Shown here: in pieces, positions 8,144-56,230 of the stretch
Position numbering within the stretch: position 1 is the first letter of the stretch
Layout of the letters: every line of letters begins with the position of its first letter
From: Parcubacteria group bacterium
GTDB taxonomy: Bacteria; Patescibacteriota; Minisyncoccia; Phycocordibacterales; Phycocordibacteraceae
Direction: 5' to 3'
Assembly: GCA_028286605.1 (NCBI GenBank)
Contig: JAQBRE010000002.1
Span: forward strand, 326,011 to 390,010
Length of the DNA stretch: 64,000 nucleotides
Translations under genes and position numbers: made by a program
The notes under the pieces: model-generated
Told to the model about the DNA's origin: nothing
The model's database searches: none
Seen by the model: the letters and a program-made list of their open reading frames with translations, nothing else

Positions 8144-8306
8144 GATTCACTCATTCTAGCATTCACATTCAATCCACAGGCTTTTGATATATTGTGCGCC
8201 TATGCGAAAACGTTTGAAACCCTGTGGTATTTAATTACATTCCGCACGAAATAGTTTATAAATTCTTTAGAATTACTTTATCTCCGTGCTGTATACTCGC
8301 GGAGCC

Positions 8307-8696
8307 ATGTCCTACGAAAAGAATTTTGATAGTTGGAATGAATCAAAGAAAACACTTGAGCACGGGCCTATTTTGCACTATGGTCATCCCGGCGAGGTGT
8401 GGTGGTGTTCTTTGGGAATTAATCTTGGTGTAGAAGTAGACGGCAGGAATGATAACTTCGAAAGACCTGTAGTGGTGTTGCGGACATATAATCGAGAATC
8501 TCTACTTGTCCTGCCACTTACCAGCAAAGAGAAGAATGACAGATTTCATCATCCTATTCACTTTGGGAAATACACGTCTTGGGCAAAACTTACGCAAGTT
8601 CGAGTTGTGAGCGCCAAGCGTCTTTTGCGCAAACTAGACTCAATAGATGAGAATGAGTTTTCCTTGTTAAGGAAAGCATGGATTGATTCTCAATAA
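8307..8696 (+). CDS. MazF/PemK-family endoribonuclease-like toxin paralog 1 (orphan, no adjacent antitoxin)
   Basis: GEVWWCSLG.N.G.E.DG...FERPVVVL....RESLLVLPLTSK matches the Kid/PemK/MazF fold signature (RP.lV.. / vP.TS). It sits in a low-GC islet. A TATACT -10 is 11 nt before the ATG at 8307, which suggests a leaderless mRNA. The track's GTG start at 8286 is also possible. Confidence 0.6.
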   Translation: MSYEKNFDSWNESKKTLEHGPILHYGHPGEVWWCSLGINLGVEVDGRNDNFERPVVVLRTYNRESLLVLPLTSKEKNDRFHHPIHFGKYTSWAKLTQVRVVSAKRLLRKLDSIDENEFSLLRKAWIDSQ

Positions 8697-8704
8697 TAAA
8701 CGAA

Positions 8705-8730
8705 TACCCGCAGAAATGCGGGTATTCTCG
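8705..8730 (+). terminator. Rho-independent terminator after mazF-like 1
   Basis: gaatacccgc-agaaa-tgcgggtattc hairpin. Confidence 0.55.
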
Positions 8731-8782
8731 AGGACCGAGCCCTAATAGACCTATTCTAACAAATCAGTGTCTGCTGCGTCAA

Positions 8783-10792
8783 CTAAACCCCGATCAGAAC
8801 GGGAATCACCATCGGTGCCTTGTTCGTGCGGTTGAAGAGGTAGCCGCTCACGACATCCGAAAGATTATTCTTTACGTAGTCGAGGTCTACCGGATTCATT
8901 CCCTGCGTGGAATCTTCAACGGTCTTCTTGATGAGCAGGCGTGCCTGATTGAGCAGGTCCTGGCTCTCGCGTAGATATACGAAGCCGCGCGAGATGATGT
9001 CCGGAGATTTGCGAAGCTTGCCGGTCTTCAGGTTAACGGTCGCGATGATGACGAACATGCCATCCTTCGCGAGTGCCTGACGATCACGGATAACCACTTC
9101 CTGCATGTCGCCGATAGCGAAGCCGTCAACGATGAGCGGAGAGGAAGGAACTTTATCCTTGTGAATCTCCATCTTCTCGCCATCGATGATGTCGATAACG
9201 GTACCGTTGTCTGCAACGACGATAGTGTCACGCGGACGTCCAGCCTGTTCCACCGCTTTCGCATGCGAAGCAGTCATAGAATAGTAGCCGTATGCAGGCA
9301 TGAAGAACTTCGCGTTGACCTTCTTGTTGATCCAGATGAGCTCGCCGGTGTTGCCGTGGCCTGTGGAGTGCACGTCGCTCGAGCGGTAATGGATGAGCGT
9401 CACGCCGTTGCGATACAGGTTGTCCTTCAGCGTCTGCACGGAGATCTCGTTTCCTGGAATGACCGAGGAAGAGAGGACGATCGTGTCGCGCGGATTGAGC
9501 TGGATGAACTTGTGCTGCTTCGTCGCGATGCGCATGAGCGCAGCGAACTGCTCGCCCTGGGCGCCGGTCGAAAGGATGACGATCTTATCGGGCGGATAGT
9601 CGGCCATTTCCTGTGCAGGAATGATCGTATCCTTCTTGATATCGATAAGGCCCGTCTTCTGTGCGATCTCGAGGTTCGTCTTGATAGAGCGACCTTCCGT
9701 CACGACTTTCTTTCCGAGCTTCTCGCAGGTCTCGATGATGTGGACCATACGCTCGAACTGCGAAGCGAACGTACCGATGATGAGTCGGCCGTGCACGTTC
9801 TTGATGATGTCTTCGAGAGTCTCGTGCACTTTGCGCTCTGGCATAGAGAAGCCGTCACGTTCAGCGTTCGTAGAGTCCGCGATGAAGAACAGGTTCTTCT
9901 GCGCAGCGAGAACGCCCCAGGTCTTCTCTTCAGCCGGCGTCGGAACGCCGTCATTGTGATCGAGCTTAAGGTCTCCTGTAACGACGACGTTGCCGTACGG
10001 AGTCTCGATAGCGATTCCCATGGAATCAGGAATCGAATGCGTTACGGCGAAGAACTGAACCTTGGTCGAGCCGATGGTCATGGTCTGACCAGCCTGCACG
10101 ACGACGAGGTTCGGCTTCGGTACGTCGGGATACTCTTCCTGACGCTTCGCGATCATCACGGCAGTGAGATTCTGCGTGTAGATCGGCGGATTGCCGAAAC
10201 GATTCATGAGGAACGGGATGCCGCCGATGTGGTCGAGGTGGCCGTGCGTGATGAATACGCCGCGGACGCGGTCTGCATTCTTTTCAAGATATGCGGTGTT
10301 CGGGAGCATGTAGTCCACGCCAGGATTCGCTTCCTCGGAAACGAACTGGAAGCCGACGTCGAAGATGAAGATGTCTCCATTGGTCTCGACGCAGAACATG
10401 TTGCGGCCCACTTCTTCTACGCCGCCGAGCGGAATGATGCGAACGACATTCGATGCCGGTGCGGCAGGAAAGTAGTCGGCAGTTCGCTTGGTGAGAGTCG
10501 GTGCGGGGCGACGCATGCGCATGCGGTCGCGGGATGAACCGTTGCGGCCGCCGGGGCTGCGTGATCCTTGCGGACGAGGTCCGTCGGAACGGGGAGCGCC
10601 TCCTTCGGAACGCTGGCCTTCAGGGCGCGGTCCATCAGGACGAGGTCCTCGTCCTTGGCCGCCACGACGTGAAGGACGGCGCGGACCCATAGATCGGTCG
10701 CCTTCAGTGCGTGCGCCTTCGGGACGCGGTGCGCTCGAACGGTCCTCGTTATTAGAGCGAGGTGCCGGAGCGGGTGCGGGTGCTGATGCCAT
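8783..10792 (-). CDS. rnj: Ribonuclease J (metallo-beta-lactamase/beta-CASP) with ~110 aa N-terminal Arg/Gly/Pro-rich disordered extension
   Basis: HGHLDHIGG motif and the beta-CASP/RNase J architecture, about 555 aa. The N-terminus is MASAPAPAPAPRS...RGGQGRGPRPDGPRPEG..., a low-complexity RGG-like tail. Confidence 0.85.
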   Translation of the reverse strand: MASAPAPAPAPRSNNEDRSSAPRPEGARTEGDRSMGPRRPSRRGGQGRGPRPDGPRPEGQRSEGGAPRSDGPRPQGSRSPGGRNGSSRDRMRMRRPAPTLTKRTADYFPAAPASNVVRIIPLGGVEEVGRNMFCVETNGDIFIFDVGFQFVSEEANPGVDYMLPNTAYLEKNADRVRGVFITHGHLDHIGGIPFLMNRFGNPPIYTQNLTAVMIAKRQEEYPDVPKPNLVVVQAGQTMTIGSTKVQFFAVTHSIPDSMGIAIETPYGNVVVTGDLKLDHNDGVPTPAEEKTWGVLAAQKNLFFIADSTNAERDGFSMPERKVHETLEDIIKNVHGRLIIGTFASQFERMVHIIETCEKLGKKVVTEGRSIKTNLEIAQKTGLIDIKKDTIIPAQEMADYPPDKIVILSTGAQGEQFAALMRIATKQHKFIQLNPRDTIVLSSSVIPGNEISVQTLKDNLYRNGVTLIHYRSSDVHSTGHGNTGELIWINKKVNAKFFMPAYGYYSMTASHAKAVEQAGRPRDTIVVADNGTVIDIIDGEKMEIHKDKVPSSPLIVDGFAIGDMQEVVIRDRQALAKDGMFVIIATVNLKTGKLRKSPDIISRGFVYLRESQDLLNQARLLIKKTVEDSTQGMNPVDLDYVKNNLSDVVSGYLFNRTNKAPMVIPVLIGV

Positions 10793-16903: not shown

Positions 16904-16994
16904 GCTGCGTAGAAGCATTCTTCAGATTTTCTTTATCTCGTCTTGATATCTTTTTGAAGGCGAGCAAAAGCTTCGATTGATATACTGACAAGAT

Positions 16995-17273
16995 ATGATT
17001 AAAAAAGAACTCACACTCAAAAAAGACACTAAGAAAGAAAGCGAAATCGCAGCACTGGCTCGTATGGTAGCGAATGGATTTAACCATATGCTCGAAGTGA
17101 TGGACGAAAAATTTGAGGCAGTCGATAAGCGATTCGATAAATTAGAGGATCGCGTGGATATTTTAGAAAATAAAGTTGATGGAATTAGTGACCTTCTCCA
17201 CAGTGTGGTTATGCCGACACTTGAAGCTCACGACGGACGTATTAAACGTATAGAAAAAACAGCATTCGCATAA
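16995..17273 (+). CDS. Hypothetical coiled-coil protein (92 aa) in a low-GC islet between lemA and htpX
   Basis: Heptad-like region EVMDEKFEAVDKRFDKLEDRVDILENKVDGISDLL. Local GC is about 40% against about 57% in the flanks. Confidence 0.4.
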   Translation: MIKKELTLKKDTKKESEIAALARMVANGFNHMLEVMDEKFEAVDKRFDKLEDRVDILENKVDGISDLLHSVVMPTLEAHDGRIKRIEKTAFA

Positions 17274-24448: not shown

Positions 24449-25111
24449 ATGTTCTCGAACTTCGAGCTACCGCAAAAAGTAATAGATATAACTGCAAGCA
24501 TCATAATCTTCGTAGCAATGCACGTGCCACTTTTGAGTCATGCTTTGCTTGCGGGACCAACTATTAATGAGCCTCAATATACTCAAATTGCTCATACACA
24601 GCCTGTAATTATTCCAACGCAATCAATTCAACCTGTTCAGCAAAAATCTCCCTCAGGTATGTCCAGCTCAACACCACAACAGGTTGGAGAGTTTACTGTA
24701 GTTGTAAACTGCAAAGACTTTAATCCTGTAAGTGCTATTATCTTAAAAAATGAATCGATAGTACAAACGATTTCTATTCTAGGTGCAGGAATAACGGGAA
24801 TTCATATGTGTGTACCAGCAGAAGTAAAGGATATTAATTTTGATAGCTATCCTGACTTTATGGTTCCATCTGATAATGGTAGTGGAGGTGCCACTTATGA
24901 TTATTGGCTATTTAGCTCAACAACACAGCAATTTTCGTGTCCAGAGGGAAATTATAGATGTGGTTTGATGAATCCAGAATTTGATTCAACGGCTAAAACT
25001 GTTATTAGTGTAGAACCGACTGGGGCAGGTCATGTCACTACAGACACTTATCGAATTCTTAATGGAAGGTTAGTTCTCTTGAAAGAGGTAAAGGAGAATG
25101 ATTACGAATAA
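24449..25111 (+). CDS. Hypothetical secreted/anchored Cys-containing protein (220 aa) encoded in a low-GC (~38%) islet
   Basis: N-terminal hydrophobic anchor and a Gln/Pro-rich linker. A TATAAT box lies 12 nt upstream. Local GC is far below the flanks. Confidence 0.5.
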   Translation: MFSNFELPQKVIDITASIIIFVAMHVPLLSHALLAGPTINEPQYTQIAHTQPVIIPTQSIQPVQQKSPSGMSSSTPQQVGEFTVVVNCKDFNPVSAIILKNESIVQTISILGAGITGIHMCVPAEVKDINFDSYPDFMVPSDNGSGGATYDYWLFSSTTQQFSCPEGNYRCGLMNPEFDSTAKTVISVEPTGAGHVTTDTYRILNGRLVLLKEVKENDYE

Positions 25112-49842: not shown

Positions 49843-51117
49843 CTATTTCTTGTGGCGACGAAGGAAGCTTGGAATCGCGCCCCAGGTGTCGTCCTCTTCT
49901 TCGACGATAGGCGGCGTGATGGCCTGTGCGGTTTCGCGAGGCTTCGGCATTGCCGTTACGATAGGCTCTTCGCGTTCGCGGCGAGGAGGAAGGATAGGTC
50001 CCTCGTCTTCTGGCATTGGCATAGATGCTGGCGCTTCTTCGCGCGGTGCAGGGCGGCCGAGCACGTCATTGAAGATCTTTCCGCGGCTTTCTTCCTGCTC
50101 CTTCGCAGGCATCGTGAAGAGCGAGCGTTCGCCACCTGTGTATGACGCGGATCCATCCTGTTCAGGGAAACCGGTCGCGATGACGATGATGCGGAGCTGG
50201 CCCTTCTTAAGCTTCTCATCGCGCATGATACCGAAGATGACCTTCGCGCTCTTATCAACGGATTCGCCGATAACCTTCGCTGCTTCCTGTACTTCAAGGA
50301 TGCCGAGGTCGTCTGAACCTGCGACCACAAAGAGGATGCCACGAGCGCCGGTGATGGAAACATCGAGGAGCGGGGAATTAACGGCTGCTGCAGCGGCGTC
50401 CTTGGCACGGTTGTCGCCGTCTGCGATACCGATACCCATGAGCGCTGGGCCGGCACCTTCCATGATCGCCTTGATGTCGTTGAAGTCCGTGTTGATTTCA
50501 CCAGGAGTGGTGATGATATCGGAAACACCTTCCACTGCCTGACGAAGGATTTCATCGCAGAGCGCGAATGCATTCTTCGCGGAGGTCTGTGCTTCTACGA
50601 TAGAGAGAAGCTTGTCGTTAGGAATAACGAGATATGCGTCTACTTCCTTCTTAAGAGAAGCAAGACCGACTTCAGCGATCTCGGTGCGCTGTGCGCCTTC
50701 GAAGGTGAACGGCTTGGTGACGACGGCAACGGTGAGCGCGCCGAGCTCCTTCGCGATCTTCGCGACGACGCCTGCTGCGCCTGTTCCTGTTCCGCCACCC
50801 ATGCCGCAGGTGATGAAGACCATGTCTGAACCCTGAAGCGCTTCCTGAATCTCCTGACGTGTCTCTTCAGCGGCACGACGGCCGAGCTCTGGGTTCATTC
50901 CAGCACCGAGGCCCTTCGTGAGGTTCTTGCCGATGTGGATCTTACGCTTCGCGAGGCTGCGGTGCAGATCTTGCGCGTCCGTATTGATAGCGATGAACTC
51001 CACGCCCTTCACCTTGGAGTTGATCATGTGATTAACAGCATTGCCGCCAGAACCTCCACAGCCGACGACGCGGATGCGTGCGAACGTTTCGATTTCAGGG
51101 GTTACGCGCTTGGACAT
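49843..51117 (-). CDS. ftsZ: Cell division GTPase FtsZ
   Basis: GGGTGTGAAGVVAKIAKE tubulin signature. 424 aa with a C-terminal tail. Confidence 0.97.
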   Translation of the reverse strand: MSKRVTPEIETFARIRVVGCGGSGGNAVNHMINSKVKGVEFIAINTDAQDLHRSLAKRKIHIGKNLTKGLGAGMNPELGRRAAEETRQEIQEALQGSDMVFITCGMGGGTGTGAAGVVAKIAKELGALTVAVVTKPFTFEGAQRTEIAEVGLASLKKEVDAYLVIPNDKLLSIVEAQTSAKNAFALCDEILRQAVEGVSDIITTPGEINTDFNDIKAIMEGAGPALMGIGIADGDNRAKDAAAAAVNSPLLDVSITGARGILFVVAGSDDLGILEVQEAAKVIGESVDKSAKVIFGIMRDEKLKKGQLRIIVIATGFPEQDGSASYTGGERSLFTMPAKEQEESRGKIFNDVLGRPAPREEAPASMPMPEDEGPILPPRREREEPIVTAMPKPRETAQAITPPIVEEEDDTWGAIPSFLRRHKK

Positions 51118-51249
51118 AGGGGTATACGAAGAATGTGCCGGTTAGTCAACACATAGTACCAAATCCTTTAACAATGCAAACCTTGACGGGTTAATAGCCT
51201 GTGTTCGGGTTTATAAGCACTTTATCTCTTTTTAGTACGATAGAGGGCT

Positions 51250-51636
51250 ATGAAAAAAGATTTTAAAGGGTGGAATAAACAAAAAAGCGATATTGATGAT
51301 TCAGCACCACGACCATTCTTTCGTGAAGGTGAAGTATGGTGGTGCTCTTTAGGTGCGAACATTGGTTTTGAAATGGATGGAAAGAATGAAATATTCGAAC
51401 GTCCAGTATTTATACTTAAAAAATTCAATAATGAGACATGTTTGGTTCTCCCTACAACGTCTCAATCTAAGTCTGGACGTTTCTATTATCCATATATGAG
51501 TAATGGAAAGAAATTTGCAATTAATCTGTCACAAGTTCGACTTCTTGATGTAAAACGTTTGAGGCGTAGAGCGTATGTTCTGTCCCAAAAGCAACACAGT
51601 GAAATTAAAACTAAATTCATATCACTCCTTGAATAG
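51250..51636 (+). CDS. MazF/PemK-family endoribonuclease-like toxin paralog 2 (orphan), in a low-GC islet between ftsA and ftsZ
   Basis: GEVWWCSLGANIGFEMDG...FERPVFIL...ETCLVLPTTSQ aligns with the 8307..8696 protein over its full length. No antitoxin-sized ORF is adjacent. Confidence 0.6.
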   Translation: MKKDFKGWNKQKSDIDDSAPRPFFREGEVWWCSLGANIGFEMDGKNEIFERPVFILKKFNNETCLVLPTTSQSKSGRFYYPYMSNGKKFAINLSQVRLLDVKRLRRRAYVLSQKQHSEIKTKFISLLE

Positions 51637-51638
51637 AC

Positions 51639-51662
51639 GAAACCGCCCTTTCGGGCGGTTTC
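51639..51662 (+). terminator. Rho-independent terminator after mazF-like 2
   Basis: gaaaccgccc-tttc-gggcggtttc. Confidence 0.6.
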
Positions 51663-51780
51663 TCAGGGGCATGAAGCCGTATCAGATCGAAACTATGCAC
51701 TGCATAGAATCTCGGGGGCACGAAGGCCGTAATGTAGTTAGTATATCAGGCATCAAAATAGCGTCAACAAAAACAAGTTT

Positions 51781-51798
51781 GCCCCGCGTAAGCGGGGC
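51781..51798 (-). terminator. Terminator after ftsA (minus strand)
   Basis: gccccgc-gtaa-gcggggc, followed on the minus strand by cttgttttt. Confidence 0.5.
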
Positions 51799-51852
51799 GA
51801 GGCCGAAGCCATTTGTATCTATAGCTTAGCAAATGGCCAGGCAGGCAGTCAA

Positions 51853-53019
51853 CTATGGCATGAACTGCTTTATGAATCGTGCGAAGCCGCGTGTCAGATC
51901 GCCCATGACGTTTTTCTTCGGCGTATCGGTGTCTCCGGTGAGTCCCCAGAGCGCGAGACCATACGCGACTGCCCAGGTCGCGTCACGGATCTTCGTTTCA
52001 GAAGTGATGCGCATATCTGCAAGGCGCGACGGAAGGCTGAGCGTTCCTTTCGCAATATCACTGATCGTTCCCTGGCCTGCGCCGCCGCCGGAAAGGATGA
52101 TGCCGGCAGGAAGCGAGCCGTGACGATTGAGCGAACGAAGATGCTTCTCAATTAATTCGAACATCGTACGGAAACGAAGCGCGATTATTTCTTCGACTTT
52201 CTTTTTCGGATACATCGTGCCGGAAAGACGTCCGAGCTTGATGCGCTCCGCATCCTCAAGAGAGATCTTGAAACCGAGCGCGAGGTCGTCAGTGATATTA
52301 GTCGAACCGGTCTGGAATACTTTTACGGAAATGGGAAGGCCTTCATCGTAGACGACGATGGAAACGGTCTCGGCGCCGATGTTCGCGAGGACGCAGCCCT
52401 TCATCTTCTGATCTTTCGTAAGCGTTACGTACGAACCAGCAAGTGGGGAAGCCATGCGATCTATCACTTCGATGTCTGCGCCCTCTACGGCAGCGGTAAG
52501 CTGCTCTGCGTGCTGCGAAAGGCACGTAACGAACAGGAACTCACCTTCGAGGCGCGTACCCTTCATGCCGATGGGCGCGCCGAGCGTCTTCACGCCGTCA
52601 ACACGAAATTCCAAAGGAATTTCGTGCAGGACCTTGCGGTTCAGGAACTGAGGCTCGGCGGTACGTCGAGCCTCGTCACGCACCTTCTCCATATCTAAAT
52701 CGGTGATCTCCTGATCTGCGCGTGAGATTATCGTCTGGCCGCTTGCACGCGTCTCATCAAGTGACACGCCGCCCACTGCAAGGAAGGCAGACTTGATCGG
52801 CATGTGGATGATGCTCTCTGCCTGGCCCTTCGCGAGCTGAATGCTTTCGATGGCATCCTGCAGATCAACCACGTAGCCATGACGCAACCCCTGCGTCTCA
52901 CTGAGCCCGGTACCGATGATGCGTACCTGCGGACCCTCCTCGGTTATGACCTCTTCAACCACCACGACTTTCGTCTGGTGCGTGCCGATGTCAATTCCTG
53001 TTGCGATTCTTCGAGCCAT
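51853..53019 (-). CDS. ftsA: Cell division protein FtsA
   Basis: Actin-fold N-terminus GIDIGTHQTKVVV, and the SHS2 insert. 388 aa. Confidence 0.9.
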   Translation of the reverse strand: MARRIATGIDIGTHQTKVVVVEEVITEEGPQVRIIGTGLSETQGLRHGYVVDLQDAIESIQLAKGQAESIIHMPIKSAFLAVGGVSLDETRASGQTIISRADQEITDLDMEKVRDEARRTAEPQFLNRKVLHEIPLEFRVDGVKTLGAPIGMKGTRLEGEFLFVTCLSQHAEQLTAAVEGADIEVIDRMASPLAGSYVTLTKDQKMKGCVLANIGAETVSIVVYDEGLPISVKVFQTGSTNITDDLALGFKISLEDAERIKLGRLSGTMYPKKKVEEIIALRFRTMFELIEKHLRSLNRHGSLPAGIILSGGGAGQGTISDIAKGTLSLPSRLADMRITSETKIRDATWAVAYGLALWGLTGDTDTPKKNVMGDLTRGFARFIKQFMP

Positions 53020-55996: not shown

Positions 55997-56230
55997 TTTA
56001 TTCGCTCGTCAAATGTTCTGTATTCGTTTCATTATTTACGCACGCTACTTGCTGAAAGAGAATCTATTTTCTTATCAAGAATATCTATTTTCATTGATTG
56101 TTTCTGCGCATCTTCTCAGTATTTCGTGAGTAAAGAAAAATATGCACCGACTTGAGCTGCGTTTACGAATAACTCTTCAGTTTTTCTTTATCTCGGCTAC
56201 AGGCCCTTATGAATGCTATGATTCGGTGCA

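Follow-up and report, generated by a model that had tools for sequence, protein, structure and literature searches.

We analysed a 64,000-nucleotide (nt) stretch of the metagenome-assembled genome of a Parcubacteria group bacterium (the window hereafter), in which a gene for a MazF-like protein (51250..51636, plus strand) lies between two minus-strand genes, ftsZ (49843..51117) and ftsA (51853..53019). The gene is accompanied by a predicted small RNA gene, which runs towards it from the opposite strand and recurs beside related genes in many other genomic settings. With slightly better than even confidence, we read positions 51208-51852 as a two-component module that is type I-like, consisting of a toxin gene and a convergent small RNA resembling an antitoxin. 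The first component would be a plus-strand endoribonuclease of MazF fold with an extra N-terminal helix, and the second a structured minus-strand RNA, transcribed from its own σ70-type promoter and convergent on the toxin gene. Complementary in cis to the 3' end of the toxin mRNA, the RNA would form a duplex with it that is open to RNase attack, keeping toxin synthesis low; loss of the RNA would free the toxin, itself an RNase. The antitoxin role of the RNA is one that we infer. We favour a type I-like mechanism because complementarity is built into the layout, because the layout matches that of type I systems with 3'-overlapping RNAs, and because there is a precedent in CjrA, described as the antisense small RNA antitoxin of a type I system in Campylobacter jejuni 81-176 (PMC10470494).

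A reading made earlier from the sequence alone (the sequence-only reading) had placed a 128-amino-acid (aa) MazF-like protein between ftsA and ftsZ, and both the coordinates and the family assignment hold. The protein matches PF02452 (PemK_toxin; E 7.5e-10, 39.4 bits against a cut-off of 23.1), the sole Pfam family matched; the toxin families ToxN/AbiQ, CptN and TenpN gave no match. PHROG 9567 ('MazF-like growth inhibitor') also matches, with the N-terminus covered. NCBIfam and PADLOC scans of this protein and of a second family member in the window, described below, returned no match, there being no model for the family. In the AlphaFold2 model (predicted local distance difference test score 89.7, predicted template modelling score 0.84), a MazF-type barrel carries an extra N-terminal helix (residues 5-18) and a C-terminal helix. 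The top 50 matches in a Foldseek search of the PDB were all MazF-type toxins (MazF, YdcE/EndoA, MoxT), with E-values to 4e-7 (S. aureus MazF). A single-sequence search of the PDB gave marginal matches only; a profile search succeeded, aligning R51-P52 and T70 onto R25-P26 and T48 of Bacillus subtilis EndoA/MazF (4MDX), where we take R25 and T48 to be the catalytic residues. Across the family R51-P52 is invariant and T70 near-invariant, and an alignment of 45 members has W8, G35, N37, G39, E41, D43, G44, R51, P52, K74 and R103 as invariant positions. We conclude that 51250..51636, on the evidence of the model and these alignments, is a genuine gene of MazF/PemK fold, encoding a putative endoribonuclease toxin. 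Its product is 100% identical to 'hypothetical protein JWM39_460'.

The family is large: a HMMER search over 1.84 billion representatives returned 577 clusters (50% identity) at E<=1e-30 and 2041 at E<=1e-10, and the N-terminal helix is covered in 150 of the 150 matches listed. Among the Campylobacterota, homologues are found on plasmids of Campylobacter, Helicobacter and Nitratiruptor and in CJIE4 prophages, and are annotated as toxins. The sequence-only reading had described the gene as an orphan with no antitoxin. For a protein antitoxin this stands: no such open reading frame (ORF) fits the 132-nt spacer upstream or the 216-nt spacer downstream, and BLASTP clustering of nearest neighbours across about 85 family loci revealed no conserved protein neighbour, only redundant contigs clustering. 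What the claim had missed is the conserved small RNA gene that adjoins each toxin gene and converges on it. Precomputed Pfam assignments of the neighbours show housekeeping genes only, and family members are found at atpG/atpD, atpA/atpG, GAPDH/rpiB and pyrF/rpsM and beside RNase J-like genes. Several members (loci L006-L008 and L012/L013/L124) lie inside the ATP synthase operon (atpG-atpD or atpA-atpG), in operon orientation and 2-10 nt past the upstream stop codon; they are apparently co-transcribed with the operon, yet the promoter of their RNA is directed against it. At one of these loci, L012, atpG and atpD are also separated by a gene of the 23S_rRNA_IVP family. Short contigs L122, L129, L132 and L174 each carry two to three family toxin genes in tandem.

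The RNA was recognised from its promoter and from its structure. With a threshold of at least 10 of 12 hexamer matches, we obtained 54 matches to antisense σ70-like promoters past the toxin stop codon in 76 loci; the -10 element ends 50-69 nt past the stop in 36 of the 54. Most of the roughly 80 family loci have such a promoter, as a rule some 55 nt and less often about 100 nt beyond the stop. After shuffling, the sequences gave a mean of 2.5 matches (maximum 7), and the sense strand and upstream regions gave 7-9, unclustered. The predicted RNA begins 5'-ACAAAUGGCUUCGGCC, with a leader of the form A(C/U)AAAU(G/C)G. Hairpin 1, which is short and usually GGC-UUCG-GCC, covaries (GGAC/GUCC, CGAC/GUCG, GCC/GGC); hairpin 2 is longer, has a variable stem, often with a GCAA loop, and doubles as the terminator. 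The 3' end of the RNA abuts or spans the toxin stop codon. This sequence and its two hairpins recur in all 39 of the 39 loci parsed, and the 5' domain ACAAAUGGCUUCGGCC is strongly conserved across toxins that are only 40-50% identical. A plain MAFFT alignment misaligned hairpin 2; pairs were hence counted in an N-padded structural alignment, and the first model was built from a homogeneous subset. In the structural alignment of 39 RNAs, compensatory changes on both sides were found at 13 of 17 pairs, above every shuffled or slid control.

Two covariance models were built, R1 from 15 RNAs and R2 from 44 RNAs collected with R1, with the sequences of the window, of L041 and of L009 (a metagenome contig that has the same gene at the same site) excluded. 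Over 332 kb of family loci, R1 gave 58 matches at E<0.01, nearly all antisense and immediately past the toxin stop; over the first batch of loci, mostly ftsA-locus DNA without a toxin gene, it gave one weak stray match. None of the 4227 families of Rfam 15 reached its gathering score in the window region or in 12 family loci, and we regard a weak match to NsiR4 (23 bits against 40) as chance. A single RNA module is the rule among the loci; tandem modules occur in the window, L009, L019 and L002, where leader, hairpin 1 and linker are kept and hairpin 2 is free to differ. On this comparative evidence, a conserved, structured RNA gene with a predicted promoter of its own is tightly linked to the toxin gene. 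The models also matched in places without an adjoining toxin gene (L139 3904-3961, L169 3891-3943 and L117 421-471) and after additional toxin copies (L174 3801-3854 and L129 3187-3245). Separately, a LOOT RNA (RF03000, 75 bits) lies at L134 6577-6696 (+), 2 kb from a family toxin gene.

Searching both strands of the window (128 kb) with R2, filters off, we identified four copies of the RNA, all on the minus strand, as the top four matches; the next best scored 12.8 bits (E 0.04), and R1 agrees. Two copies form a tandem RNA (51631..51736) past the stop codon of the ftsA-ftsZ toxin gene: module a at 51736-51681 (R2 20.2 bits, E 2e-4) and module b at 51670-51631 (R2 25.7 bits, E 3e-6; R1 29.1 bits for 51687-51631). 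The tandem RNA ends in a hairpin at 51662-51639 that abuts the toxin stop codon, has a folding z-score of -3.8, and is preceded by a predicted promoter at 51740..51767 (-; TTGACG-16-TATACT with a TG extension, 10/12 in the scan). In L009 both promoter hexamers are kept while the spacer has diverged, and from promoter to toxin stop the window and L009 share about 92% identity, against 72% (nucleotide) for the toxin gene. The third copy partners the second family member of the window (8751-8694; R2 27.1 bits, E 1e-6; R1 25.8), with a terminator hairpin at 8727-8702 followed by GUUUAUUAUU (z -3.5) and a predicted promoter at 8753..8782 (-; TTGACG-18-TAGAAT with a TG extension, 10/12 in the scan) that abuts the stop codon of an RNase J-like gene.

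The fourth copy, at 51819-51771, stands alone directly after the ftsA stop codon (R2 38.2 bits, E 4e-10; R1 22.2 bits) and is absent from L009. By reading the sequence we noted a weak promoter-like element for it at 51823..51852 (-; TTGACT-18-TAAGCT, the -10 matching at only 3/6), which the promoter scan did not report; transcription of the solo copy may therefore come instead from ftsA read-through. It could be left over from an earlier cassette, or serve as a spare 'immunity' RNA. Its hairpin at 51781-51798 was at first taken for a plain ftsA terminator, a view superseded by the models, which show it to be hairpin 2 of this RNA copy, the third at the ftsA-ftsZ locus; with its T-run, the hairpin (51798-51781) probably also ends ftsA transcripts. 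The sequence-only reading had credited both toxin genes with rho-independent terminators of their own. In the scan, terminators were found on the minus strand only (8727..8702 then GTTTATTATT, and 51798..51781), and the hairpins past the two toxin stops (51639-51662 and 8702-8727) have no plus-strand T-run. Both window RNAs are of the variant whose hairpin 2 lacks a sense-strand U-tract, and transcription of the toxin gene probably continues through the entire RNA gene.

Comparison with relatives supports the earlier suggestion that the module is an insertion. We took ftsA loci from 80 related GTDB species, 78 of which hold both ftsA and ftsZ; the spacer between the two genes is at most 150 nt in 44 of the 78 and exceeds 300 nt in 27. 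It is empty, at about 107 nt, in the closest GTDB relatives, L014 and L015 (FtsA 91% identical). In most relatives the two genes are separated only by some 100 nt of empty spacer, and we therefore regard the module as inserted. L009 (FtsA 91% identical) carries the gene (70% aa identity), identically placed and oriented; in L060 (FtsA 73% identical) a family member 39% identical lies in the spacer, antisense to both neighbours; and in L041 a member 54% identical to the second window protein lies immediately downstream of ftsZ. The FtsZ encoded in the window is itself 84-94% identical to that of relatives. Long spacers in other species hold unrelated small ORFs or nothing recognisable; examples are an XRE-type helix-turn-helix gene in L039/L040, a 3.2-kb insert with a metallophosphoesterase-like gene in L017 and a weak NYN-like ORF in L064 (G+C content (GC) 0.35). 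Because long spacers hold extra small ORFs, the adjacency of ftsA and ftsZ is often interrupted in this clade, and the spacer is an insertion hotspot.

The age of the insertion can be judged from the closest loci. In a neighbour-joining tree of a single gene, FtsA, the order is (window,(L009,(L014,L015))), and the simplest history suggested by these sequences would be one gain before the divergence of the clade and later loss in L014/L015. The contigs of L014 and L015 both stop 18 nt into ftsZ, at the same position and exactly at the variable site, probably as an artefact of assembly or scaffolding. Between the window and L009 synonymous sites are saturated, with a divergence (dS) of 1.35 for ftsA and 1.5 for the toxin gene, for which the ratio of nonsynonymous to synonymous divergence (dN/dS) is 0.14. 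GC at third codon positions (GC3) in this pair is 0.26 and 0.31 in the toxin gene against 0.64 and 0.54 in ftsA. The low GC reported by the sequence-only reading is real (0.36-0.39 across 51100-51500 against 0.53 for the window). It is also general: in 82 of 85 loci the family gene is poorer in GC than the DNA around it, with an average difference of 7 points, and the hosts span GC 0.30-0.56. Since dS is saturated, low GC3 persists in both genomes and low GC is family-wide, the composition is no sign of recent arrival. Low GC is instead a maintained property of the family, implying selection for AT-rich codons, for which expression damping, avoidance of self-cleavage sites and antisense constraints are candidates. 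We conclude from these rates that the module is long-resident and kept under purifying selection.

The insert does not look like a mobile element. We found no target-site duplication, which the sequence-only reading had proposed to look for, and no terminal or flanking direct or inverted repeats around 51208-51852; nor is there a recombinase among the neighbouring genes. A transposable or site-specific cassette (insertion sequence, miniature inverted-repeat transposable element or integron) was rejected for lack of target-site duplication, terminal repeats and an adjacent recombinase. The window has only two copies of the family, 51250..51636 (cassette 2) and 8307..8696 (cassette 1; plus strand, 129 aa; PF02452 E 1.5e-14, 54.6 bits, same cut-off). 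Their proteins align over 123 residues at 39% identity (E 7e-35), the N-terminal F..WN..K segment included, in agreement with the paralogy proposed earlier. The further proposal, that a promoter-plus-gene cassette was duplicated or mobilised, is not supported, on several counts: the pair (38% identity) is less alike than 86% of all family pairs, closer relatives exist elsewhere for each (70% in L009 for cassette 2, 54% in L041 for cassette 1), target-site duplication is lacking, and the core of the motif common to the two cassettes also lies upstream of host genes. By these comparisons the 8307-8696 gene with its RNA is an independent, distantly related family member, not a duplicate.

That motif lies in the toxin-proximal end of the insert (51208..51249, plus strand), which holds TTTATAA (51210-16), the 10-mer ACTTTATCTC (51219-28), TAGTAC (51233-38) and a Shine-Dalgarno-like AGAGGG (51242-47). 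As the sequence-only reading had noted, the exact 10-mer is shared by the cassettes; it occurs in the whole window at 8275-8284 and 51219-51228 only, ends 22 and 21 nt before the respective ATGs, and has TTTATAA upstream of it in both. Its 8-mer core TTTATCTC, present also upstream of pth (56187) and of a gene for a 92-aa protein (16932), is not specific to the cassettes, and ACTTTATCTC was dropped as a mark of a mobile cassette. The TTTATCTC core may be a host promoter or operator element. At the two host sites a common sequence, CTTCAGnTTTTCTTTATCTC, occupies intergenic positions 16916-16939 (+) and 56171-56194 (+), preceding the 92-aa gene (16995..17273) and pth (56231..), respectively.

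The insertion had also been expected to displace the ftsZ promoter; instead, the predicted promoter is retained. Upstream of ftsZ, empty sites share a block consisting of GTCAAnnTTTGCA, 16-17 nt, TGnTAnnAT and then TTGACTAA. The block is also kept in the insert-bearing window, L009 and L060, and within it GTCAA..TT.GC, together with the A and T of the -10, does not vary among 12 loci, some insert-bearing and some empty. In the window it lies at 51153..51187 (-), in the form GTCAAnnTTTGCA-N16-TGnTAnnAT, and reads GTCAAGG TTTGCA (-35 at 51180-51175), 16 nt, TGgTACTAT (-10 at 51158-51153). Homology to the empty sites restarts at the plus-strand anchor 'aacacagg' (cctgtgtt on the other strand; 51198-51205); thus, the insert spans about 51208-51852, between the ftsA stop codon and an intact ftsZ promoter. 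The insert hence lies upstream of the promoter block, and since ftsZ would keep its own promoter, the apparent disruption of the ftsA-ftsZ pair would be benign.

Several points weigh against this type I-like reading. The promoters, the RNA ends and the extent of overlap with the toxin mRNA are predictions, and the toxicity and RNase activity of the protein are putative. The alignment used to count covariation was fitted to each sequence's own predicted hairpins and leans towards structure, and R1 and R2 miss the RNA-like stretches of L060 and, in the Campylobacterota, of the plasmid pVir and of Nitratiruptor, for which the likeness was seen by eye only. The best-conserved part of the RNA is the 5' leader with hairpin 1, which lies outside the complementarity to the toxin mRNA in the variant whose toxin terminator spans the stop codon. 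A purely antisense mechanism needs neither this 5'-domain conservation nor the tandem duplication of modules, and a search for trans pairing between the RNA 5' domain and positions -40..+100 of the toxin mRNA gave a mean z of +0.33, with no value below -2. A serious alternative, although one that we think less likely, is that the RNA neutralises the protein directly, by type III-like binding or substrate mimicry: the leader-hairpin module would be bound, and perhaps processed, by a MazF dimer, which would cleave tandem copies into units, and the antisense overlap would be incidental. The conservation of ACAAAUGGCUUCGGCC across divergent toxins and across hosts of such different GC speaks for direct binding, as do the roughly 92% identity that the RNA keeps between window and L009 where synonymous sites are saturated, the retention of leader, hairpin 1 and linker in tandem copies, the solo RNA copies without a toxin gene, and the lack of trans pairing with the toxin 5' region. 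The leader may also resemble UAC/UACA-type MazF recognition sites; however, transcription is predicted to start at the A of ACAAAU, which puts the U of UAC outside a single-module RNA. Direct binding is further opposed by the arrangement of type III RNAs, which are same-strand upstream direct repeats whereas the RNA here is convergent, downstream and mostly a single module, and by the only probable experimental relative being described as type I. A broader form of the same idea, which we put forward tentatively, is that a large MazF subfamily, with hundreds to thousands of 50%-identity clusters and centred on the candidate phyla radiation (CPR)/Patescibacteria, is a so far unrecognised hybrid class of toxin-antitoxin (TA) system, in which a dedicated, structured, convergent RNA would bind the toxin as a substrate mimic (type III-like logic in a type I-like layout) and solo copies serve as anti-addiction or immunity elements.

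We think it improbable that the protein has been domesticated as a housekeeping RNase, non-toxic or of narrow specificity, which might for instance process operon transcripts, and that the RNA serves only to terminate transcription from both sides, to insulate, or to regulate the flanking genes. The long residence under purifying selection at a housekeeping site would suit such a role, as would the many members that lie 2-30 nt after a housekeeping gene, apparently co-transcribed with operons such as that of ATP synthase, the lack of PADLOC or NCBIfam TA-model matches, and the clean loss of the module in L014/L015. A terminator, however, needs no promoter, and here a strong dedicated one stands at a fixed distance, directed against the toxin gene and often against the host operon. 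Moreover, the RNA accompanies the toxin through unrelated genomic contexts, the catalytic residues are those of active MazF toxins, and the Campylobacterota plasmid and prophage homologues are annotated as toxins. The account given by the sequence-only reading as a whole, that of a recently duplicated or mobilised promoter-plus-gene cassette of foreign, low-GC origin with a true orphan toxin that splits ftsA from ftsZ and displaces the ftsZ promoter, is very improbable. It drew on the low GC and on the 10-mer upstream of both genes, and the empty sites of most relatives also fit it, but the two copies are only 38% identical, L009 has the same insert with saturated dS and equally low GC3, the ftsZ promoter is kept, target-site duplications and terminal repeats were not found, the motif core precedes host genes too, and an RNA partner is present. 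The type I-like module remains our preferred reading.

Cassette 1 lies in a different setting, its toxin gene being convergent with an RNase J-like gene (8783..10792, minus strand). Genes of this kind (RNase J-like, beta-CASP) adjoin MazF-like genes in three unrelated loci, namely in the window (8783-10792, minus strand), in L001 (2311-3687) and in L109, which may reflect chance or a preferred site. Another low-GC stretch of the window (about 0.37-0.39), at 24449-25111 (+), encodes a 220-aa hypothetical protein with an N-terminal hydrophobic segment that is unrelated to the MazF family.

MazF proteins are the standard example of type II toxins, and a MazF gene that stands alone ("solitary") is usually recorded as an orphan. 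Our analysis points to a MazF subfamily of 577 clusters (E<=1e-30), frequent among CPR bacteria with their reduced genomes, that has a small RNA gene in place of a protein antitoxin. The RNA is not in Rfam and is invisible to protein-based TA finders; hence, the annotation of such MazF genes would change. It is a testable candidate for an RNA antitoxin of a MazF, and the module offers a small, defined protein-RNA pair with which to study how an RNase toxin is restrained.

With the type II toxins MazF, PemK and EndoA (B. subtilis EndoA 4MDX, S. aureus MazF 4MZM, E. coli MazF) the protein shares its fold (template modelling score to target 0.7-0.8), the catalytic Arg-Pro and Thr, the G.E..G loop and the Pfam family; it differs in the N-terminal helix (residues 5-18, KDFxxW[NH]xxK) and in a longer beta1-beta2 loop. 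Unlike mazEF and pemIK operons, the roughly 85 loci have no upstream MazE/PemI gene, and a convergent small RNA gene is present instead. Like type III systems (ToxIN, CptIN, TenpIN), the module would pair an endoribonuclease toxin with a structured RNA, and the RNA modules are repeated at some loci; however, type III toxins belong to other families, and their RNAs are multi-copy direct repeats upstream on the same strand, whereas one or two convergent modules lie downstream here.

The studied relative is probably cjrA/cjpT of pVir. The only toxin annotated on pVir of C. jejuni 81-176, a MazF-like gene at NC_008770 30634-31038, is a homologue of this family that shares the N-terminal motif (34% identity, E 2e-7); no protein gene adjoins it, and past its stop codon a two-hairpin stretch was seen by eye. 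The identification of cjpT with this MazF-like gene is tentative. The T1TAdb paper mentions neither MazF nor CjpT, and literature searches for cjpT were uninformative. The two systems differ in setting, cjrA/cjpT being plasmid-borne in Campylobacterota and the window module chromosomal in a CPR bacterium.

In B. subtilis, txpA/RatA and bsrG/SR4 are type I systems with convergent antisense RNAs that overlap the 3' end. The module would share with them a cis-encoded small RNA that has its own promoter, is convergent and has a bidirectional terminator or 3' overlap, all predicted here. It differs in that the toxin is a 128-aa soluble RNase fold rather than a hydrophobic peptide of <60 aa, and in that the RNA conserves the sequence of its 5' domain and can occur as tandem copies. 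SymE/SymR of E. coli is a type I system with a nuclease-like toxin that is not a peptide; SymE is AbrB-like, and SymR overlaps the 5' end of the toxin mRNA. It differs from the module in both of these features, and it provides a precedent for an RNA-cleaving protein toxin under the control of a cis-antisense RNA. The module is a variant of known TA logic, probably with one studied relative, in which an RNA gene replaces the protein antitoxin.

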